Source of the DNA: Vermamoeba vermiformis
Lineage: Eukaryota
Reading direction: 5' to 3'
Assembly (NCBI GenBank): GCA_045837725.1
Contig: JBEWZL010000135.1
Span: forward strand, 62,001-82,832
DNA: 20,832 nt
Positions 1,058 through 19,797 of this stretch are shown here, piece by piece. Numbering within the stretch: position 1 is the first letter of the stretch; every line of letters begins with the position of its first letter. The position numbers and the translations under genes are program-made. The notes under the pieces were generated by a model. It saw only the letters and a program-made list of their open reading frames with translations. It searched no databases and was not told the origin of the DNA.

Positions 1058-2578
1058 TTAATTATCGTGCAAATACCAATCAAACATCTCGTGCACCAAC
1101 GCATTAAAATTAAATGCACCTGCGACAATGCAAAGGTGCCAGATCTGATGACTCGTTGGCTAAAAATACATTAATAAACCATTGTGATATGCATACAGTT
1201 ATTTACTTACAAATATACTTAATCTTCCGTCAGGGAAGGCTCGTTCAGGAAATCTCGTTATAAAAAAAGCTAATCCGACGCCATAGCATAGGTATGTCAA
1301 CGCGTAGCGCTTGAGGACGAACCAAGTCTACATATAATCGATTACTAATTAATATTATTGATTATAATAGTAATCGGAGTTTTGCAATGAATCAATTTGC
1401 GCTTGGTGAATCTGGATCGACTATTTTTTGGCCAAATAGCTTACTTGATTCATGATGGATATCTTCGCGACTAATATTATTCCGAATATAAACATAAATA
1501 ATAGCATTTTCATCCTATAACAACGTAAATTAGAACTGTCTTAAACTTGAATTTTTGTACTGGATCTTGCCTTCTAGCCTCGTCTTTGATTAAATCGCAA
1601 GTCAATAAGAAAGATATGACTAAGTACGATAAATATACGAGTACTATTAAATACAAGCATGCTTGCGTCGGATGTTTGTGGAATCCGTAAAAAGTGACGT
1701 AGAGCTCTGAAAAAATGAACGCTGAAAGAATTCCAACGTGATCGATTCTTTCCCTAATAAGGAAATAAATTAATTTAATAAAATTGATGTGATAATTCGG
1801 GTTTGTTTTAGCTACTTGCCAGCAATGACATGCGGATTCGGAATGACAAGAAAATAAATGATACAAGGCACTTGAGCCCAAGCACAATATTACTCCAGTA
1901 TAGTACATTAATAATAATGCCCTAGCGAAAGGAAATATTAGCGATTAAATTGATTGGCTCCAGATCCAAAAATATGATTAGTTGGCGTTACCCATGTATT
2001 GGTCCGTATTTGTGTTCAAATTCGTTGCCGCGTATTAAATCGACAGATAAATATATATAATACATCAGAGGTATTAAATGAGTCCAAATATTGCCTGCCA
2101 GAATTAGATCGAATTCTAGATCGTTTTTGGATCCGATTATATTCTTACCAGTTTGATTATGAATAGAAAATAACGTCTTTATGCATTCCAAATATGAGTT
2201 TTTCTCGTTTCTATAGCCATACGTGATCCATTCAAGGTGCATCCAGCGAGGAACTTTCGAGATGGGCAAAGCTTCGGACATTATTGTTTTTGAGCTATAA
2301 AAATTGCATTAATATTTTTAAAAATACGTGAATACTGTCATATTATCATTTTCGTTGTTATTAATAATTGCTAATGTAAAAAAATATCTTTACCGGCCAG
2401 ATCTTGGTCCCATTTCTTGGCTCTTATCGTAATGACCGTTCATAATATGATTTCCATTACAATTTTCATTGTGTGAATGGCCATTTTGGTCTGAACTGAG
2501 GCTGAACTCAGATTTGGTGCCGTTAAGCAACGAGTCTGCACTAGATCTCCTTGCCTTTCTTCGTAGTGATATTGCCAT
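1058..2578 (-). CDS. PAQR / adiponectin-receptor (haemolysin III family) 7-TM protein
   Basis: Spliced product contains the PAQR motifs 'GYR...FSIHNQTGNIWTH', 'SSALYHLFSCHSE...ERIDHVGI' and 'TRFPERAFPDG...TSHQIWH' (Zn-binding His residues). ATG at 2578 (MAISLRRK), TAA at 1058. 7 introns, two of them GC-AG. Confidence 0.92.
1515..1570 (-). other. GC-AG intron in PAQR gene
   Basis: Donor AG|GCAAGA and acceptor TTATAG|G join 'KDEARR' to the hydrophobic 'MKMLLFMFIFGIILV'. The nearby GTACAA donor gives a non-hydrophobic frame. Confidence 0.7.
1754..1819 (-). other. GC-AG intron in PAQR gene (66 nt, in frame, stop-free)
   Basis: Donor TG|GCAAGT and acceptor ATTAG|G give 'CHSESACHCWERIDHVGI', which has the same spacing as AdipoR 'CHSEKVSRTFSKLDYSGI'. 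Confidence 0.8.
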
Positions 2579-2875: not shown

Positions 2876-4439
2876 TTAGTTTTTGATAAAGTTGTAAATC
2901 TTTTCATTGACCTCTTGCGGCATATCATGCTGCACCAAATGAGAGGCGTTGTCAAGAATTTCGTACTTGCCATTCTCGCAGAACTTAACGCTTTCATAAG
3001 CGCATTCTTCGACTAAAGCGCGGTCCTTCTTGCCCCATAGGATCAAGGTAGGCGCTTGAATCTTATTTTCTGGGTATTTAGCGCTGAAAATATAAAATTA
3101 AGTTTTCGATCTCGGGATCAGATCTTTCATAAATTCCTCGGTTCGTACCCTATATTAGCCTTATAATACTTCAACATAGAGGATAGAGCATTAGGTGCAG
3201 ACCACATCTTATGCGCTTGTTGAATATCATAGGCTGAGTACGATTTTTCATTGGCGCTCAATAAAGCTCCAGTTAACCATCCAAAATTATCCCTATAATA
3301 AGAAAATTAACATATATATTCATATATAACTATAATAGTAATTTTAACGTAATTTTAACGACTTACTTGGCAAGTTTATATTCGACCATAGAATAGGGGA
3401 AGAAGTTGAAAAAAGCCATGTAATATAATCGCACTATTTGCATCGGATTAGCTTTAACGACGTTCTTAATTGCAGGAGGATAAGGAGCGTTTAATATAAT
3501 CAGTTTGTGGAGTCGATCTGAATGTCTGACGGCTACATTCCAAGACACCATTGCTCCCCAATCATGGCCAACGAGCTAAAATCATCGTTAATACTAATAT
3601 TTGAGTAATGATATGATGCTGTAATATTCTACTTAAGTATATTTTTTAAGGCTAAAATGAGCGCTGATCCGATCGAACAGAAATTTCAAATGCCGGGTAT
3701 ATTTTTACTAATTCTATTGTTTTCTAATATCATTTCTTACGTAGGCTTTGCCGGTCTTGCCAGCAAAAGTATCGATGACGCTGATAATGTCGGTAACTAA
3801 GATTTCAAGTTGGTACGCGGATTCGGCTTTATCAAACAATTGTTAGAAACTTCCTAACTACTTATATAATACGAATAATATTATATAGATCTACATTGTA
3901 CTTACCTTCAGGTTTATCTGAAGTGTTGTAGCCTCGCATATCGGGTAAAATGACGTAATAACCTTTATCAACAAAATATTTGACTTGGGCCTTCCAACTT
4001 AACAAGCTAATATTAAATAAAATTAGTATTGTGGATGGCTCTATATATAAAGCTTCAGTCTTACCCACTCTCCGGAAATCCGTGCAAGAAAATCAAAATA
4101 TTATTTGGATCTGCCTTTCCACCAGTCCAAACGTGCAAATTAATGCCGCTGCTCGTTTTAACATATTGCTAATATATATAATAATTAGTTTCACGAGTAA
4201 TTTACTCCAAATAATTTCAATTTAGTTCGGATACCGAAACCATAGTCCAATTAACTTACTTCAGATAATAAAGACAAAGCTTCTAAATCGGTCTTTGATG
4301 GCTCTGTGTTGGGACTAAGTCTTCCCAAGGGAAGATCATCGGCTACGTACATCCAAGTCGCGAAGAAATAGCCAAAGAACGCGAATCCAATCAACCAAAG
4401 GTACAATATGGTTTTAAATATAAATTTTATAGCACCCAT
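2876..4439 (-). CDS. Alpha/beta-fold epoxide hydrolase (EPHX3/EPHX4-like) with N-terminal membrane anchor
   Basis: Motifs FLHGFPES, PDMRGYNTSDKP, LVGHDWGA (nucleophile Asp), cap Tyr residues (YYMAFF, KYYKAN), ILWGKKD (acid) and NASHLVQHD (His). Hydrophobic N-terminus. 6 GT-AG introns, stop TAA at 2876. Confidence 0.92.
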
Positions 4440-4574
4440 GATGTGGATAGTGGTGTCTAATGTACTCGTGGCATAAAACTGAATTTTACCTCCTGTTCAA
4501 TTTTTTTGGTTTGCCGCCAGATCCCATTCAATTTTTCACAAGTGACCGATAGGACACATTAAATAATCAATTAA

Positions 4575-5195
4575 TGCTATGTCAAAGATCGCTATAGCCA
4601 CCGCATCAAGTAGACATCCTATGCCTTGAATGCAGTCAACAACATTATTGTTGAATGGTGTACTTCATGGCAACCATTGTGCTTCTTTGATTTCAACACA
4701 AACTGGCTTTTTAAATTCTATAATCCCATTCGGTAACCCAAAAAATACGCGCCAGCTGTAAAAGCTAGCCTTCTTTAGGGCCAAGGCCTTGATTGCAACC
4801 TACCGCTTAACTGAAAATTCGTTCTCCTGTATTATTACCTATAATATCTAATAGCTTGACGACATACATAGATTTATTTTTTTTAAATAATTTTCAAGCC
4901 TTGCACCGTCGAAAAATTCTGATCTAAAATTGCGGTAAATCCTCCGCTGCGATAACCTCTGTTTAGCGAAGCAAGTTGTATTCAGTACTCACCGAAGTAG
5001 AGAGGCCGAACAATAATGTCCACCAGGTACAGGTGGGTTTGTCCGCCGAAATGTTACAGGTAAATTCTTCTCTTTGGATTCGGTTCGAAAGAAATATTTG
5101 TATGCAAAGATCTTGTTTGATTATAGGGTTCATTAACTACTAAAAAATTATCCCGAGAGGTAACAATCACTGAAGTCAACTGTAAGCCCAGATAA
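4575..5195 (+). pseudogene. Possible decayed spliced gene fragment of unknown family
   Basis: Exon-like blocks flanked by GT/AG (TSYALNAVNNIIVEWCTSWQPLCFFDFNTNWLFKFYNPIR; RSKLYSVLTEVERPNNNVHQVQVGLSAEMLQ at 4967-5059; GSLTTKKLSREV... from 5127). There is an in-frame TAG at 4611 and no consistent start. Confidence 0.25.
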
Positions 5196-5391: not shown

Positions 5392-6256
5392 ATGAAAGTA
5401 GCACTTCTTGTATTCATTATCACTTTGCTCGCTGCTGGCTGCTACGCTGGTCGTTATCTGGAGATCTACTCCGATAGCAACTGTGTAGATCTTGTTGCTG
5501 TTGATTGGGTAAGAATGCTTGACCATAAAAGATATATATCTAACCGTTATGCAGTGTTCTGAGTGCGGTACTGGAACCGATGTCGTTTGCAGTGCTACTG
5601 GCGGTGGATCTTCCAACTACTACTCGTTATCTTACGACTACGCTTTTGCTTATGCAGATGATATTCCCTCCGACTTTGCCCGCATTGCGTATAAAAAAGC
5701 TGGTGATTGCGCTACCATGGATGCCACAAACGTAGACTTTACTGCGGGTAAGCATCCGAAACTGTAAATTCGGTTCACAAACGAAAATTGTGTTCTAAAT
5801 TTGGTTCTGTTAGTCAACGCCTCGCAACTGGGAGAGTGTCTTGGCTACTACGAAGGAAGCCAAAGTGCAATCCGAATTAGCGGATGCGACGGAACGAACC
5901 CGATCACATTCCAATACTACGATATCAGTTCTACTTGCAGTTATAACTCACCTCCTGGTACCTTTTCGAGCACTTGTGGTGAGATTGGCTCAACGGGCGT
6001 TTTTGGTCTCGGAGCTTGTCCAAACGAGCAACTTTTCGGAATTCCAGCTACACCGACTAGCCCTCCTGTTGACGCACCCGTCAGCGCTCCTATTGATAGC
6101 ACTCCAAGCGCCAGTCCTACTGCTAGCAATTCTCCATCTGGTTCAAACAGTCCTTCGTCAAACAGCCCGACTAAATCGACCACTCCCGTCAAATCTTCTG
6201 ACGCCGCAAAAATAACTATGGAAATACTCGCTGTTATTGCTTTGTTCCTTTTTTAA
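5392..6256 (+). CDS. Secreted Cys-rich, Ser/Thr/Pro-stalk, probably GPI-anchored cell-surface protein
   Basis: Signal peptide MKVALLVFIITLLAAGCYA, a Cys-rich ectodomain and a PTSPPVDAPVSAPIDSTPSASPTASNSPSG stalk. C-terminus KSSDAAKITMEILAVIALFLF* has small residues followed by a hydrophobic tail. 2 GT-AG introns. Confidence 0.85.
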
Positions 6257-6502: not shown

Positions 6503-7055
6503 ATGAACACATTCAGTAGTTGGCGATGCTATTTGCGAACTCGAAAATTTCGAATAAATCCATTATTAGACAGAAATCAGTTGGTAAGACAAGATCCAAA
6601 TTTGATTTAATTCGTAAAATAGATAAAATTGTAAATATTAATATGAATTATCAGATATTTGATGTAATCCATCCTGGCAAAAAATCAATCTCGAAAAAAG
6701 AAGTCCAAGAACAAATTGCATTGACATACTTCGCCGATCCGAATTTGATTGTCGTATTTGGCCTTAAGATCAAGCTATGGAGGCTATGGATCATCCGGAT
6801 TTGCATTAATTTATCATAATTTACGAGCTATGCAATCCTTTGAGCCAAAGCACCGCCAAAAAAAGTACTCTGTAAGCAAATCTGACATTTGTCTTAAATG
6901 AACGATTAAATTAATGTTAATTACAGAATCGATCTGGCACTCCACGATTTGCTCGTAAAATTAGGAAAAATCACGTTAAAATACAACGAGCAAGAAGGAA
7001 AAAAATTGCTCGAACCCGCAAAATCAATTATTATGATCTCAGAGGAAGCTGGTAA
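6503..7055 (+). pseudogene. RPS24: Divergent 40S ribosomal protein eS24 (RPS24) paralogue with a +1 frameshift (pseudogene, recoded gene or sequence error)
   Basis: Exons 6503-6583, 6655-6871 and 6927-7055 encode LRTRKFRINPLLDRNQL|IFDVIHPGKKSISKKEV...VVFGL[+1]RSSYGGYGSSGFALIY...FEPKHR, matching eS24 motifs (IRTRKF..N.LL.R.Q, DVLHPG, FG...FGGG..GF..IY, EPKHR). One extra base near 6763-6767. Confidence 0.85.
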
Positions 7056-10836: not shown

Positions 10837-12766
10837 TTAAATGAACTTGACCTGGATGCTGACACCAACTCCGGGCAAAGAAGGATCAGTAACGTCCAAA
10901 TAGGCACCGTCCTATACACTAACAAATATTAACACTACTAAAACAAAATTAACGCCATTAAACAGGTACTTACGGGGAACAATTCCTTGCACTGCTTCTC
11001 CAAGTTGGGTCTGGTGGCCTTTTCTAAGGGAGCAGGCTGTTGCATGTACAATGAAATAGTCTTGGCACCCTCGGGAGTGTAACGAATGCTAGGTTTCTTC
11101 AACATACTAATGATAAAAGACGTTAGTCCGGTCACATCTAGATCGAGATCACGAGTGGATCAGCGTAGCTCCATTGAACTTACAATTTGCTGTTGTTGCC
11201 CAACTCTTCCTTCAAGTCGTTGAGAGTGGCCTCGCCGCTGAATTCCAATGACAAAGGCTCACCACCGCAGACAGGGCAGTGCTTCTTCTTTTCAAAGTTG
11301 AAGGTGTACGTGTAGACGGATTGTTGGCCGTTGTACATCATGTAGTTGTTCAAGTACTTGCTGGACTTGGTGGCAATCTTGAAGGCCTCGTTGGCGCAAG
11401 CAGCAGCAATGATGGCGTTAGTGGCGGCAATAGCGGGAATGATGCGCTTGACGACACCTTGGGTCAATCTGTAGGTCACGCCGTTGATGTTGAATTGCTT
11501 GGCACGTTCAGCAGCCTTTTCGAAGATCCAGGTCATGTGTTCCGGACTGTCCTTGTCGAGCTTGACGTCGGGGAAGGCGTCAGGGAACATGACAGTCATG
11601 GCGTACTCAATGCAGTGCTCGGGTTGACGAGGAGTGTGCGCCAAAGTGCACATAGGGAAGTTCATCGGGTCCTTAGGGAACATCTCCAACGAGCACTCGA
11701 AGCACGAGGTGACGCGCGGCAAGATAACTCTTGCTTGGCCCTTGAAACCTTCAGTACCACCGTCGACCAAAGGAATGACAGTGTCGGGATCGGGCTTGCC
11801 GTCGTCATCGTATTGGACCAAGTTGGCCAATGTAGTGTTGATCCAGCGACGAGCTTCAACGGAGTCCAAACCAGCAATGATCAAAGTGAATTGGCAGTAA
11901 AAGTCATCGTCCTTGTCTTGGATCTTGCAGAAATGACTGGTGAGGTTAGTTAAGGAAAAATAATAATGAATGTATGGTAATAATTTAAGTTCTTATGTTA
12001 GGGTTGAATAAGGATACGGAACGACGTTAGCGCCAGGAACACGCTTGTTAATGAAAGCAGCGGCACATTCAGCCTTAGCCTTGCCAACATCACCAGCTCT
12101 ATACGAACAACATTAATATTATGCACATTTGCACGCAAAAGTGCGAGAATAAAATACAAAATAATATTACTAAGAACGACTGAGTGATTGAAATAAATGT
12201 GGAATCTGATCTGCATGGAGCCGCTATTTGTGGCGGTTATGCTCATAATATAACTATATTTATGTAATAAATACCTGAATAAAAATTGTCTGTTCAAGTT
12301 GGAAATGTCGATCGTATCCATATCAATAACATCAATATTGCGGAAACCAACGAGAACCAAGTCCTTAAGAAGCTCGCAGCCCAAACCACCAGCACCAATA
12401 ACCAAAATTCTAGAATCTTCCAACAAAAATTGCTTGTTCTGTCGAGAAAGAAGTCAGATTGACCAGCAAATAATTACATTGTTTAATTTTATTACAAAAT
12501 TATCAAAACTCGGTATTTATGGTCCATAATTACGCTAATTTTTTGAAGTAATATATTTTCCATTTTAACACGTCGTAGAGTATCTCTAGCGAGTTATGGT
12601 CTTTAAAATTAAATTTGTGGGTATTACTTAAATTTAATAGATTCTCATCAATACTTACAGCTCCATTATCAGGAGTATCAGGTTCGAAGCCAACAGCCGC
12701 GGAAGGTCCGCTTCGGCTCAACAATTTGTCGATGTCGGCCCAACGTTCAGCAATATCAAGAGACAT
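10837..12766 (-). CDS. UBA3: NEDD8-activating enzyme E1 catalytic subunit
   Basis: [66 protein letters not shown], catalytic [41 protein letters not shown] and a C-terminal E2-binding domain ending ...VSIQVKFI*. 5 coding introns plus a probable 5'UTR intron (~12769-12831). Confidence 0.96.
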
Positions 12767-13109: not shown

Positions 13110-14291
13110 ATGAGTGCCTCGACTGTTACTTCCGTTGTGACGTCCATCCGCAACACGCTGCAACAAAATGCCAACAAAGCAGACAGTCAAATGATACAAA
13201 AATATTTTAAAAATGTCCTCGAATTTCATGGCATTCGTGCCCCGAAGCTCAACGCCCTGTTCAAAGAGCTGTACTCGAGCCAGATTAGCGAGCTGGATAC
13301 AGACGAGCAACTGAAGGTGGCTTACAGCTTGTTTGACTCTAAACTAGGCGAAGAGAAGTCTATAGGATGCAGGATCCTAACTAAGAACACGAAGAAGCTC
13401 GGCGTTCAACATCTGCCTCGTCTGGAGGAGTTAATCGACAATCACATTTACGACTGGTAAGTTGAAGTAGCCACACCTGGTGAAGATATCTAGTTATTAA
13501 TGTTGCTAAAAGGGGCACCGCAGACAAGTTTAGTGGCCAAGTCATGCACTTCCTGATCACGAAGGACAAAAAAGTTCCATCGTTGATTGCCAAATGGTAC
13601 GATTATTGAAACCTTGTAGGCACGCTCAATATAATATCTTTACTAAGTCTGGAATAGGAAAGACGCGGAGAACGTTTGGCGAAAGAGAGTCAGTTGCGTG
13701 TCGTTTGTCAAACTCGCGCGACACGGCAAGTATAACGATATTATATACGACATCTGTGAAACTACTGTCAAGTGCAACGAGCGCTTCGTCCAGTTGGGGG
13801 CAGGGTAAGTGGACTACAATAGTTTTTATTCCTATACGATTGCTTATAATGTGCCCTAGATGGGTTCTTCGAGAGCTCTCACTAGCGGATCTCGGTGCCG
13901 TTGTTAGCGCCGTAGCAGCGATCAAAGGATTCTTGCCCGTCGTCAAAGAAGTCCTCAACATTATTCAAAAAGGCGTCCAAACAGCGCAGCAAGTTTTAAA
14001 TACTGTTGATGAAAAATTAAAAGGCCTTCCGCTCGCCGATAATCAGAAGAAAGCTTTACGAGAGTAAGAATTAAGTTCTAATGATATTAACAATGTTAAT
14101 TGTCACGCAGACTCGCAGCTTGCGCTCCCTCGAAGCTCATTGATGGCACAAATATACCAAAGTCTACATTACAAGAGGTCGGAAAGAGATTCGGCGAAGC
14201 GTTCGAGGTGGATGTGACCAACTTCGCCGATCAATTTACGAACGCATTGAATGAAGTCACTACTATTGATCCTAGAATCCACACTAATTAA
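13110..14291 (+). CDS. AlkD-family (HEAT-like repeat) DNA alkylation-repair glycosylase with an unrelated C-terminal extension
   Basis: Exons 13110-13456, 13513-13596, 13658-13804, 13860-14063 and 14111-14291. AlkD signatures: KYFKN..FHGIRAP, YDWGTAD (W..D), ENVWRKR, ERFVQLGSGWVLRELS. After 'LADLGAVVS' the sequence is no longer AlkD-like. Confidence 0.82.
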
Positions 14292-14387
14292 TACTATACA
14301 CAATCCTGTATTAAAGCAAATACCAGTAAACGGATCTCAAAAGATTGATTTATTGCCAGATGCGAAGAGGCCTCTTCAGGCATCATT

Positions 14388-17300
14388 TTACTTCTTAATT
14401 ACAAGTATACTATTCTCGCCGTCATATCCGAGAATCAGCTGGTTGTTGGAGTTTGATTCGGCAATGTTCATCGGATCTTCGTTCAGAATCCACAAACAAA
14501 TGTCAGTACTAAGAATCTGCGCCACGTTATACATATGCAAATGCAATCCTCCTCTGTGGACGAAGAATTCTTCGTCTAACGTGATATAATCACCGACTTT
14601 GCCGTTTTGCAAGAACGTCGTAAGGAGATCCAAAGACGTCAATTTCTCTTTTGCTAGCAACTGAAATTCCTCTAGTATTAAATATTTGAATAAGATATTA
14701 GCAAAAAAGTCCTCTGTGCTTACGGATTGAAGTCGGTAAAACCAGATCCGTATTGTCAAAGCTTTTCGCGTGTGCTTTCAACTGCAACCAGATATCGTTA
14801 TCAATGTATGTCTTAGTATTACCTTGCTCAAACAGCAATCTCTTGTCAGTAATTATTCTCGGAATTTTTGCGCCTGCGGCAATAATAATACTGGTGAAGT
14901 GCGATCGTAGCAAAGAGACGGTTTCAAGCTTCGGAAACTTGGTCAAATCGAGTGTCGTCGTTGTTCGGCGCAGCGAGCCAAAGTAAGCACCATCGTTGAG
15001 TGAAATTGAGCGCAAGTTAACGAAGTTGGTGTGTGCGATTGTTTCATCGAGGTGTTCGATTGAATAGGAGCCACCGCTCAGATCCAAGTGGGTCAATTTG
15101 GACAATAACGAGAGCTTATTGAGAGAGTACTTTTTGTGCTCATTGACGATCATCTTCACTCGCTTCAGATCCGGTAATTTGCCTTGTACAAAAAAAATTA
15201 GTGCTTTTGACTAGAAAACTTTCAAACTAATTTTTTTTCAGATTGCGCTGAGATTTCTGGCATTTCAGAACTTAATCGGTTAAACGAACTTACTTTTCAT
15301 TTCTCGATAGATTTTCTCCTCGAGGTTGCTTTTCTCCGTCATATTTTTCGTCAACACTAATCCGATAGCTTTGTGGTGCGTTGGTTCTACAAAAACATCA
15401 TTAAATTATTAACGCTATAAATTTTCAAAGTACCAGCAATTAAGCCCCATCCAAGTCTATTCTTCAAAGCTTGTTCGGTTAATTTGTCTTCGACCACTAA
15501 GATTATGTGCGGGAGTTCTTGCGGCTGATTAAAATTGATCTTTTTCTGCACAAAGTACAAGATGGCATTCCAAATCTTAGGGTACAATGGTCTGAAGTCC
15601 GTGGATATCGATGACGTGTTCGAAATTGACGCAGATCTAGAGCAACGAGGTTATTAGTTGCTGCATATAATGGCCACAAAAAACCACAAATTTGATGACT
15701 TACGTTGCCGATGTATGAGAATTCGAGGAATTAACCGTTGATTCTGAGACTTTGTTGAAGGCTTCAAGTACCGCAGCAGAAAGTTCTTTTGTAATGCTCG
15801 TCTCGATTTGCTTTCGTTTTTGTTCTGAGACCTGAAGTTCGTTCAATCGCGTGCTTCTGGAGCTGAATTCTTTTTGAAGCTGAGTTGAGATCGATGACTC
15901 GACAGCCCGACTAATCTGTGTCATTTCTTCTTTCAATTTGTTGCCTTCGTAATTCGAATTTTCAGTCGTCGTAAAAGTTTGGTGTACGCGACGGCTGTTT
16001 GACTCCGTGATCGAGTTACTTTGTTCTTCTTGAATGGTATGCGATAAATTCATCGTTTTTGCATAATTACTCGATTTCCTAGAAAAAATTGTTAGCAAGT
16101 GCAGCATGATGCAGCTGTCTTTACGTACGAGGTTGCAGCACGATCTGACTGATTATTTTCTCTTCTTAACTCATTGCGAATGGTGAAAGCAGTCGTTTGA
16201 TCTGCTTTGTTTATCGATTCATTCGTGGAAGCCGAACTGATTTTAGAGGACGTACTAATGCTGATCTAAATAGCAAAGCGTTAGTTTTGTACAAAATAGC
16301 ATGAATTTGCGAATTTGAAAAAATTACCGTAGAGCTGCTACCGATGAGTTCATCAACAAATATGACAATAGCTGTGCGACCACCTGAGTGTTTGCACTCT
16401 TCAAATCGCTGCTTCATGTAGCCTTCGAACTCGTTTTCATCTTTCAAATCGAACGACTCGCGATTGACCACTTGAATCAGTGAAAAATTGTAGTACGTGA
16501 AGAGCGGAAGAAGCAAGTTGTAGACGATACTAGGGCTGTGCCTGCTTTCATCAAACAGGCCGCAAATGTCTGACAGTAACGGCGCGAAATGAAATCCACG
16601 GCACAATTCCATTTCTAACTGCGGAGTGCCCGTCAAATTCACGATGAACCTGCCAGTCAACGAGCCAGTAGACTTTGGGTAGTGTTCTTGAATAAACAGT
16701 TTCCGTCCAACTAATCCATCGTAATCGGAAAACGCTGATCGGTCTTGATTGGACTAAACAGTTATAATTAGAGATGCAATGAATTGATGTGAAGGAGTGC
16801 TGCACTTACGAGACTGAGGTAGTTCCATTGCAAATTTGGCTTGTCTCTTTTTCTCAAGTACTTTTCAATCGCTTTCACGAACAATTTTGCAGTCAAAGTC
16901 GCATTTGCGTCTCGTCTTCGCTTCTTCAGAATTTTGTTGGCCACGTGATTTTTGATTGTTGCGATTTGAGCCACCGTGAAATTGGTCAATTTCGATTCTA
17001 AATACCCCTAGAATATCGGAAGAATTAGCTTTACTATTGCGTATTCGATATTAATTTTCTTACTTTGAAAACAGGGTTTGCGACTAGCTTATCGAACGTG
17101 GCTGTCCAATCAGGAAATTTCGTGCTCTTTTCCCACCCAGCGCGAATCATCTTAATAGTGCTACTAACGATCATAGGCCCAATGAAGATATGATAGCCAA
17201 CTCTGCCATCGCGAATAACAGCAGCGTCGAGCTTTTCTTTGAAATTAGTCGCAAGAATGACGAACAAGTTGTGGTACTCTTTGGAGCCAACAATAGCGAT

Positions 17301-18314
17301 AAACTGGTTCAAAAAGTCGCTTTTGTAACCTTGTTTCTAAGAATTATCGGTTAATCTTGTATTCATGAACCACTATGAAAAGATCAGTTCTTACATCCGC
17401 AGATCGATCACCTCCGATGGAGTCAAATTCATCCACAAACATGCAATAGGACTCATTAGGGTTTTGTTTGCATTTATCTGCTTCTTCTCGAATTCTCTTT
17501 TCAGTCTCGCCGACTTCCTTGGTGACGAATCTAGCTGCACTTCCTCGACCGGTTATATTTGCTCCGCGAAAGAACATCATTATGAAATCTGCAAGATTCG
17601 TCTTGCCAGTACCTTAGTAACAGTTTAGTCTAGCTAAGCGACAAGTTATAGACCACATCCGTAGTCTTACCTGGCGGACCGTACAGCAAGACTCCTGCCG
17701 GCCTTCCAAACCATTCTTCGCTCGCTAACGGATACAAAATGTCGTTTCTCAATTTCTTAAGCAGTAAATCATCGTAAAATCGGCCCCTAAAAGAATAAAG
17801 AATTAAAATTTTTCTGGATGTTGCAAGGTCAACTTACTGCGCAGCCTCAGCTTGCTTCCACTCATTAATACGATCATCAATATTAGAAATATCCAGAGGT
17901 ACGAATGGTTTGTTCGACGAGCCAGGCTGCTGAGAACCACTGACAGTCACAAGACTTTTGGCCTCGCGATCTAACTCCATTGTAAGTATTTTCATTAATT
18001 AATTCTAGGAACTTACTTTGTATTGCCGTTATAAATCTGCACTCGAGATAAAATCCGCCATTTTCTTGTTTGACATCCGTAAGCTTGATCCTTCGTCTTG
18101 CAGCAGTGATGGTAATTCCAAAATAACCTACTGCTGTAGGATCGTGACTCAGTACTTGTAGAAGGGATTCAGCTGCATTAATAAAACCACTGCCAACGAC
18201 GCAATCGCGGATGTCGTTGTAGGTTGCTTCATCCGTCCACAGAAGTTTGACTGAATGCTTTACGCTGGGCGCAGTATCGAAACTAAAATGAATGATTAAT
18301 GTACGACCTTCCAT
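14388..18314 (-). CDS. Large AAA+ ATPase: N-domain, active AAA (D1), degenerate AAA (D2) with Ser/Thr-rich/coiled-coil insert, LRR-like C-terminus
   Basis: 12 hand-spliced GT-AG introns give one ORF from ATG 18314 to TAA 14388. Walker A GVLLYGPPGTGKT, pore loop TKEVGETEKRIRE, Walker B CMFVDEFDSI, sensor-1/SRH VILATNFKEKLDAAVIRDGRV, second Walker-B-like AIVIFVDELIG. LRR-like segments LTHLDLSG, LRSISLND, LDLTKFPKLETVSL. AATAAA lies just downstream. Confidence 0.8.
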
Positions 18315-18584
18315 AGGTGACGGTATTAACAAATAAAGTGAAGGATTCGCAAAAACCGAATTTTGTAAACAGATCTAAATAATTCACACTCAATTCTTTC
18401 ACTTTTTGAAAGAATAACTTGTTAACGCAAGCAATAGGACCGAAAATCATACGACTTTTAAGGAATATGTAATCTTACCTGATCAGCCGATCCAAGTTGA
18501 AGATCTCACGACCAAAGAATTGAAAAGGTATAAATAACGGTTTGTTCGACCATTTTCAATTTTCTGCGCAACAATCACAACACA

Positions 18585-19296
18585 ATGCAAGGCACTCCTA
18601 TGTATAAGAAAACTTTCAGCAAACAAGACGGCGATAATAGCTACTTCGGCTCTGTTACCTTCACGGAACCAGCGTCAGAGGAGCAAGACGGCCAATTCTT
18701 TTGCGAAGCGATCAACTCGTCATCTCTTCGTTACTACACGTTTCAGACGAACGTGACGCTCTTGCAAAGCTTGCAGTACCAACAAATCTTCAATATACTT
18801 GGACACAACGCCAACAGGTACACGTTGGTCGGGCACCAACTTCGCATTGACTCGCAGACTACTCCTGGCGTGCAAGTGATTGGTGCATCAGCAATTTGAC
18901 AACACTGACGACCGCTTGACAACACTTGCAAAGCTGACACAAAAGCAATTAGACTACGTGAACAGCCAGCTGGTGCAACTCCATACCTTGCAGCAGGAAG
19001 TTACTACGCTAAAGGGACACGTCGTCAATCCAAATCGAATCATCTTGAGAGTTACGAAGAGATATTGCCGGGATTACAAGTTCTGCTTCACTGAAATAAT
19101 TGCCTTGACGAGAGAACCCAGCGGGTGGGTTTGGAAGAGCCAAAGTGCCACTGACGATAAATGGATCACTGACGTCAAGTCGCCGGATGGCAGGACAGTG
19201 AATATGAATCTGTGGGGCCAAAGAATCAGCTACACGACGCCTGCAGCTGAGTGGCGCCAAATTTCGAGCCACGATGTTTTGATTGAAACTGTATAA
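18585..19296 (+). CDS. Intronless hypothetical protein (N-domain, coiled coil, Trp/beta-rich C-domain) split by a +1 frameshift
   Basis: ORFs 18585-18899 and 18880-19296 overlap by 20 nt in the +1 frame. Both look protein-like. Heptad region LTTLAKLTQKQLDYVNSQLVQLHTLQQEVTTLKG. AATAAA near 19326. Confidence 0.6.
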
Positions 19297-19797
19297 TATC
19301 CGTGGTAAGCTTGGTTGAGCTTATAAATAAACTTGACGTACATTGGCTTTGAAATCAAGAGTCATTTGGCCGATTAGTTTCTGGTTTTTCATTAATAATT
19401 TAAATAAATTTGTAATAATATTATTATTATCCTTGTCAACAGTGTAACCAAAAGTAAAAGTCAATATTTGCGATAGAAATAATTAATAATATTCATATCC
19501 CTTTGATCCCGGCGCACGAAAAAAAATTTATAAATATTGAAGGGACAATTATTTTAGCGGGTTATTAGCAACATTGATTTTTTGGTAGGGTATTTTAATT
19601 ATTCTAAGCTTACAGTAATTTATGGCGAAGGGTGGTGCGGAGATCGGGTGAGGATCACTAAATCTGCCGTTGTAAGATGGTGTTTTCCATAATTTGGCAT
19701 ACGCAACGTTGAATTATTTATACCCATCGTTGTGTGTATGAGTAAAATCTTGTAGACAAAAATACAGTCCCGAATTTTTCCATTTATCTGTTTCTGG

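Follow-up and report, generated by a model that had tools for sequence, protein, structure and literature searches.

What is a 191-residue, Ser/Thr-rich segment doing inside the putative second AAA domain of what is probably a tandem AAA protein? The question is raised by a gene in a 20,832-nucleotide stretch of the Vermamoeba vermiformis genome (GenBank assembly GCA_045837725.1, contig JBEWZL010000135.1, positions 62,001 to 82,832), which we refer to as the window; its product is termed the window protein, and coordinates are those of the window. The host genome is that of an intron-rich eukaryote (43 Mb, 309 contigs). The gene runs on the minus strand from an ATG at 18314 to its end at 14388, and its 13 exons encode 1070 amino acids. 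A computational comparison of the insert with its counterparts in two relatives points to one long β-hairpin, rather than a coiled coil or a disordered loop.

The insert and the domains around it

The insert spans residues 551–741 (16339-15588, minus strand) and directly follows the Walker B-like strand IVIFVDELIG (16369-16340) of the probable second AAA domain, D2. The AAA fold picks up at 15587 (LYPKIW...) and continues with PHIILVVED at 15512. The original prediction, made from the letters of the window, had described a Ser/Thr-rich insert of about 190 residues at this point with the fold resuming behind it, and both statements were borne out. Ser and Thr make up 35% of the insert (22.5% and 12.6%, respectively), versus 13% elsewhere in the protein (6.6% and 6.2%; calculated on a 946-aa model), and its best 100-residue window contains 35 S+T; the median for 123 proteins is 16, and the top non-family value is 24. 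The insert contains no tandem repeat at the DNA level, nor does it show self-similarity at the level of 12 nt or 4 residues. Between the two copies of the gene in this genome, pN/pS was 0.25 for the insert (6 non-synonymous and 7 synonymous changes), 0.10 for the first AAA domain, D1, and 0.04 for the first half of D2, small numbers that fit coding constraint on the insert.

The insert takes the place of the short loop that links Walker B to the helix behind it, which puts it at pore loop 2. In the available portion of PMC9569914, pore loop 2 is located at residues 191–192, past the Walker B residue Asp186, and comprises 2–8 residues in the Lon proteins described there; both pore loops line the central channel according to an excerpt of PMC6355894.

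The splice model was derived from three-frame reading and splice sites, with all introns GT-AG. Joints in Logan contigs from three runs (X1, X2 and X14) match 9 of the 12 modelled introns; these contigs are RNA-like, a status that is a software guess. A fourth run, X15 (raw reads), contributed no reads. All three introns inside the insert are among those matched, namely intron 7 (16266..16327, 62 nt; X2 and X14), intron 8 (16079..16128, 50 nt; all three runs) and intron 9 (15637..15703, 67 nt; all three runs). The 111-nt intron leading into the C-terminal module also has a Logan-contig joint; the last intron of the splice model (14723-14672) lies within the region of that module.

D1 (residues 145–412, 16810..17785) was delimited by a Pfam PF00004 match on two exons and a three-member alignment. 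It has the features of a classic AAA ATPase: an intron-split Walker A, GPPGTGKT (17680-17599); a Walker B, FVDEFD (17439-17422); sensor 1 (17252-17241); arginine fingers, RDGR (within 17216-17202); and a Pfam AAA match above the cut-off. Judged by these motifs D1 is catalytically intact, with all catalytic motifs kept. Its pore loop 1, KEVG (17520-17509), lacks an aromatic residue. The first half of D2 (residues 413–550, 16340..16753) is degenerate, with the Walker A lost and the Walker B-like strand kept, and on the same reading of motifs D2 is catalytically dead. Its second half, placed by alignment together with the small domain (residues 742–823, 15295..15587), comprises a helix, the motif INFNQ, the β-strand PHIILVVED and a WG motif.

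Strand pattern in three family members

A search of 1.84 billion representative proteins with the D2 exon returned five matches: P0004, which is the genome's own second copy, P0005, P0008, P0006 and P0007. P0006 (a repeat) and P0007 were dropped as chance matches, and P0005 is a 113-aa fragment with 50% identity that stops just past Walker B, so that its insert is unreadable. P0008 is a full-length protein of 964 aa, 25% identical over 809 columns (E 1e-69), with a 246-aa insert at the same site. A metagenome scan yielded 8 loci from 200 candidates, five of which were ordinary AAA genes and three (L027–L029) a single sequence on near-identical contigs. L027 carries a 153-aa insert that spans four introns, and it shares D1 intron positions with the window gene; the L027 splice model, which is without RNA support, is supported by the parity pattern described below, as this holds in every exon. 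The second half of D2 in the window protein is 27% identical to that of L027 and also aligns with P0008. An insert is thus present at the same site in all three members in which the site is readable.

In each of the three inserts a large face of V/I/L/F/Y and K/R lies opposite a small polar face of S/G/T/N, joined in two members by D/E (14 acidic residues on the small face of the window protein and 18 on that of P0008). In the window protein, hydrophobic residues are distributed 30 versus 6 by parity (30/36 odd) and 24/4/6/2 modulo 4, neither of which was matched in 5000 shuffles (0/5000). Spectral power was 19.4 at period 2 and 11.2 at period 4, compared to background maxima of 8.3 and 7.5, respectively, in 2106 non-independent AAA windows. 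The pattern outlasted block shuffling (0/10000 at each of 4 block sizes), exceeded an ideal-helix control (24 versus a maximum of 18 in 5000), and kept its register in exons 8, 9 and 10 taken singly. In L027, all 18 Gly fall on one parity, with 28/31 hydrophobic and 22/23 charged residues on the opposite one; 70 of the 77 residues on its small face are S/T/G/A/N, and Gly recurs every 4–8 residues. The P0008 insert has one phase flip at position 121 of 246 (p=0.0002, the shuffles being given the same optimisation of the flip). A single flip of phase is what one long hairpin should show if its tip is a turn of two residues.

For the window protein, the predicted hairpin would consist of an outgoing arm (residues 551–644, 15946..16339; the tail of exon 7, exon 8 and part of exon 9), a tip, YEGNK (residues 643–647, 15937..15951), which holds the only Gly of the insert (95/191), and a helix-prone returning arm (residues 646–741, 15588..15942; exon 9 and the start of exon 10). 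The original prediction had also placed a coiled-coil-like core in this segment. We found no heptad (spectral power 0.0 at period 3.5 and flat counts modulo 7), though single-sequence AlphaFold does give a helix, and this part of the prediction is not supported.

The three D1 domains form one clade (support 100/99) on a long branch outside the Cdc48, NSF, proteasome and FtsH rows, in a tree of 45 rows and 153 columns with one NSF row and an unresolved backbone. Further searches did not enlarge the family: the D2 exon matched none of 238 candidates among longer proteins, and a P0008 D2-plus-insert query found itself as the one match among 6864 candidates. With P0008 D1 as the query there were 236 matches among 2488 candidates; the named ones of the best 120 were Cdc48/VAT/FtsH-type, and 0/119 of these besides P0008 itself resembled D2. 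Viral contigs (0/8, 0/14 and 0/135 candidates) and prokaryote genomes (0/97) gave no members, the ESM Atlas gave no usable match, and PDB sequence searches with the insert and the D2 pieces gave nothing significant. As the homologue scans require exact short words, they do not establish that members are absent elsewhere. PADLOC returned generic AAA matches, together with a HerA match to the core exon (E 0.0099) that has no passing stretch and was taken as compositional. A search of titles and abstracts, in which subscription journals were mostly absent, found no description of such a family, and we regard these proteins as a small and apparently undescribed AAA family.

A putative axial tube and its alternatives

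We propose, with a probability of about one half, that these proteins form a motor ring with a built-in axial tube made of six hairpins, a role in defence included. The protein would be a cytosolic double-ring AAA ATPase, and each insert one antiparallel β-hairpin with its turn near the middle and 76–123 residues per arm. In a hexamer, six such hairpins would come together along the axis and build a 12-stranded tube of ~190–310 Å (20–30 nm, at 3.3 Å per residue and an assumed 40-degree tilt), with the small polar face inside, that would extend the central channel past D2. D2 would serve as a dead scaffold gripping the tube, and ATP hydrolysis by D1 would assemble or deploy the tube and perhaps feed cargo in. 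The arms of the window member may rest as helices and straighten to strands on assembly. The variable C-terminal repeat module would select the target in cell-autonomous defence, with the tube acting as a conduit, or as a spike docking on an anionic surface via its basic tips, rather than as a classic lipid-spanning pore. The defence role is suggested by the rarity of the family, the duplication of the gene, several broken copies and the differing C-terminal modules, which are weakly LRR-like in the window protein and helical by eye in L027. A fuller scenario is possible, and we offer it tentatively: a protist defence injector whose C-terminal repeats would sense a target (a pathogen vacuole, a bacterium or the cell's own membrane), whose D1 would use ATP hydrolysis to snap six stored hairpins into a 20–30 nm β-barrel needle that pierces or docks, and through which cargo or ions would pass.

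The nearest structural precedent is LonBA of Bacillus subtilis, in which six inserted 14-residue hairpins form a 12-stranded antiparallel axial barrel, mostly polar and with an opening of ~11 Å, as described in the available portion of PMC9569914. Six hairpins on the axis of an AAA+ machine as a 12-stranded barrel would be common to both, the arrangement in the window family being a prediction. In LonBA, however, the 14 residues belong to a protease domain, whereas here 153–246 residues are inserted in the AAA domain itself and there is no protease. The long hairpin and axial barrel or stalk of the original prediction are retained in our proposal, on the strength of three inserts at one site, significant strand alternation and the central flip in P0008.

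Several points weigh against the axial tube. The periodicity tests were devised after the pattern had been seen. Without the flip, P0008 shows no global register (p=0.38), and there is no central flip in the window protein or L027, in which the turn was placed by symmetry and, for the window protein, by one Gly as well; an antiparallel self-similarity test of the inserts did not fix its position. The small face of the window protein is not clean, as 23 of its 95 residues are charged, and the three inserts are not alignable with one another (p 0.11–0.33). The hexamer is an assumption drawn from the conserved arginine fingers and from what is known of the family. Statistical support for the D2 assignment is weak: the top-listed HMM matches are AAA pieces, all with E >= 0.16, and alignment with hhalign to a Cdc48 alignment gave E 0.004 at a probability of 8% for the first half and no match for the second. 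An insert-less profile of the three D2 domains can be aligned with ordinary AAA domains without a break at the insertion site, so that the Walker B-like strand, the helices beside it and β4 line up. Among the 588 entries compared, the genome's two NSF-like D2 pieces came 2nd and 4th, with non-significant E-values of 0.25 and 0.63.

Cargo threading in particular is weakened, because pore loop 1 of D1 is without an aromatic residue in 3/3 members (KEVG, PLVG and GLVG) and so departs from the aromatic-hydrophobic-Gly motif of AAA unfoldases. That motif defines active AAA unfoldase rings according to the text available from PMC6355894, which also describes the D1 of Rix7 as gripping substrate without the pore loop 1 aromatic. 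Moreover, several copies of the gene are broken, and it is dispensable in some strains. X1 and X2 contigs, which come from one study, have two defects: within the insert, a frameshifting deletion of 1 base at codon 591 (16156), and within D1, a skip of 72 bases (17194-17267), not a splice, over the sensor-1/arginine-finger stretch; X14 is without the deletion. The case for defence is circumstantial, and the window gene's own neighbours are housekeeping genes.

Secondary structure prediction is a further point of conflict. Single-sequence AlphaFold folded the 124-aa core exon of the window insert as one 117-residue helix (mean pLDDT 89.9), and helix-type 100-degree periodicity was found in 14-residue windows of that insert (p=0.007). 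Single-sequence models often overcall helices, and an unbroken helix of this length cannot come back to the AAA core. The arms of the window insert are nonetheless truly helix-prone, and a stored-helix state or a drift away from the β form in the window protein is possible. AlphaFold of P0008 without an alignment gave a pLDDT of 36, and Foldseek on that model was uninformative. A complex prediction with four copies of the P0008 insert (score 0.00, fold uncertain) counts neither way. A Cdc48-based alignment was left unused for folding, as in it the insert was matched with the second half of D2 from Cdc48. None of the structure predictions obtained gave the barrel.

Among the alternatives, an ATP-triggered membrane pore, in which the six hairpins enter a bilayer as an aerolysin- or gasdermin-like β-barrel with D1 as the trigger, is unlikely. 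The small face is polar and, in two members, acidic, with the hydrophobics on the large face, and helix-prone arms would suit a helix-to-strand switch. The MACPF/CDC mechanism involves such a change, and the likeness to MACPF/CDC or gasdermin switch hairpins consists only of the dual strand and helix signature of the window insert. The S+T content of the inserts (29–36%) also falls within the 23–44% of aerolysin-family barrel segments given in the available part of PMC4823867; a predicted S/T-rich long hairpin, an alternating two-faced pattern and a polar inner face would be shared with that family. However, the inserts are 2–3 times longer (153–246 aa versus 75 ± 8 in that part of PMC4823867), they are mounted on an ATPase, and they have no fold or sequence in common with aerolysin, ETX or lysenin. 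The tips are basic: in each of the three members the central part of the large face has 3–5 K/R. No five-residue all-hydrophobic run is present on the outward face of the three inserts; the best run anywhere has 4 of 5 hydrophobic residues, away from the tip and in a single arm. The lysenin membrane segment, in contrast, is hydrophobic and aromatic-ringed in the text available from PMC4823867. Neither Pfam nor the PDB gave a match to a pore former, and inspection by eye showed no signal peptide in the window protein. By its length, its fold and the lack of a membrane belt, the family does not belong with the aerolysins, and since the tips are basic and without a hydrophobic belt or aromatic rings, the strongest form of the original prediction, a lipid-spanning pore, is unsupported.

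A helical hairpin acting as a stalk, with disordered S/T-rich flanks and a role in tethering or spacing partners, would account for the AlphaFold helix and the 100-degree periodicity, and is rather improbable. In addition to the lack of a heptad and the inability of an unbroken 117-residue helix to rejoin the AAA core, the strict period-4 register over ~185 residues exceeds the ideal-helix control, and the 18 Gly of L027 in strict alternation do not fit a helix.

In another alternative, the protein would be a Cdc48-like paralogue that evolves fast or is decaying, and its insert a low-complexity, disordered loop that might be phosphorylated or glycosylated; we consider this quite improbable. 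Such a loop would agree with the S/T/G/N content (45–56% in two members, 39% in the third), with inserts that differ in length from 153 to 246 residues and resist alignment, with the broken copies, and with a pN/pS higher in the insert than in D1. It does not explain the long-range phase, which crosses exon borders in the window protein and L027 and flips once, centrally, in P0008, nor is the insert pattern a repeat artefact. Proline is nearly absent (at most two per insert, at the edges), and few prolines are unusual for disordered linkers. The original prediction had itself named a disordered and unconserved insert as the outcome that would count against it; we found both insert and strand alternation in all three readable members.

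Equally improbable is a zipper or cross-β nucleus built by the hexamer for scaffolding or amyloid-type signalling, with strands packed small face to small face, for while small-residue faces with regular Gly such as that of L027 (nearly all S/G/T/A/N) occur in tight sheet-to-sheet packing, the acidic small faces of the window protein and P0008 better fit a water-filled lumen, and the flanking genes encode no partner with a matching motif by eye.

Relation to known ATPases, flanking modules and gene copies

The best D1 sequence matches are to Cdc48/p97/VAT proteins (VAT E 5e-28, Cdc48, Afg2, p97), which share the N-D1-D2 layout and the D1 Walker A and B, sensor 1 and R-x-G-R motifs. In contrast to these, the family D1 forms its own long-branch clade outside both Cdc48 D1 and D2, D2 is dead, there is no Pfam CDC48_N match, and there is a giant insert past the D2 Walker B and an extra C-terminal module; on the tree and the dead D2, this is not a Cdc48/VAT member. 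NSF combines an active D1 with an inactive D2, and this division of labour is the likeness to NSF/Sec18. Unlike in NSF, the D2 Walker A is lost in the family, and the family D1 did not group with NSF, a comparison made with the one NSF row on the unresolved backbone. The genome also has its own NSF (L050): it holds two NSF-like genes, on contigs C276 (L046) and C13 (L050), one canonical-looking and one divergent. NLR/STAND-like receptors consist of a small N-terminal domain, a central NTPase and variable C-terminal repeats. The window family resembles them in layout, with a putative sensor role for its variable C-terminal module, but its NTPase is a classic and probably tandem AAA, not a STAND domain.

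The N-terminal region of the window protein (residues 1–144, exons 1–2, 17786..18314) has no Pfam match; by eye we take it to be β-grasp-like. Residues 1–105 of P0008, on which Pfam is also silent, by eye resemble a ubiquitin-like fold with a LisH-like pair of helices behind it. The C-terminal module (residues 824–1070, 14388..15294) begins with a weakly LRR-like stretch (LRR_14, E 0.013, below the cut-off) followed by another domain. An OTU-like reading of this C-terminus was dropped, as part of it is intron and Pfam is silent.

The AAA gene and both flanking genes lie in a 5.4-kb duplicated segment (13894..19322) with 96% identity to contig C126. The C126 copy of the AAA gene (L005) has a stop at codon 833, just past the intron leading into the LRR-like tail, so that it would yield the ATPase with its insert, the tail being either missing or a gene of its own. 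To the left of the window gene are housekeeping genes (HlyIII, S24e, EF-G, ThiF and AlkD-like). The reading frame of the AlkD-like repair gene (PF08713; 13092-14290, plus strand) continues into a small gene for an amphipathic helix at the start of the duplication, 13894, in what looks like an insertion-made chimera or a mis-join; the C126 counterpart of the small gene has its own start, MGAVVS, which we take to be a myristoylation-like N-terminus. The divergent neighbour (18585-19296, plus strand) occupies two frames in the window and a single open frame on C126 (L005:8442-9329), with no family above the cut-off. Farther left on the plus strand, the S24e-like ORF (open reading frame; 6520-6819) matches profile positions 18–56 of 95 alone, after which similarity is lost, owing perhaps to an intron or to its being a pseudogene, and 5519-6256 encodes a Cys-rich protein with a Ser/Pro/Thr-rich stalk and a hydrophobic C-terminus, surface-anchored by appearance and without a Pfam match.

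Neighbours of the C126 copy include an OTU-like ORF (L005:124-714, E 0.09), a VWD/RGM-like ORF (L005:3267-3818), a single-exon ORF of 1515 aa that matches Lipase_3 weakly (L006:738-5282, minus strand, E 3e-4) and an ORF in which a deaminase-like HxH motif can be made out by eye (L006:5512-5871, minus strand). L027 is accompanied by an ORF for a helical hairpin that is long and hydrophobic (4422-5027, minus strand), an NHL-repeat ORF (1070-1417, minus strand) and a P-loop GTPase (11622-12479, plus strand; no Pfam match above the cut-off), which by eye resembles the very large inducible GTPases.

Pore loop 2 is normally a matter of a few substrate-touching residues; in this family it is replaced by 153–246 residues with a conserved two-faced strand code. 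If the axial tube is true, this would be a motor with a built-in conduit 2–3 times longer than the barrels of known β-pore formers, and categorically new if the needle were seen. Eukaryotes would then have a new means of using ATP to pierce or to deliver, and the machine would be a candidate for cell-autonomous immunity in protists.

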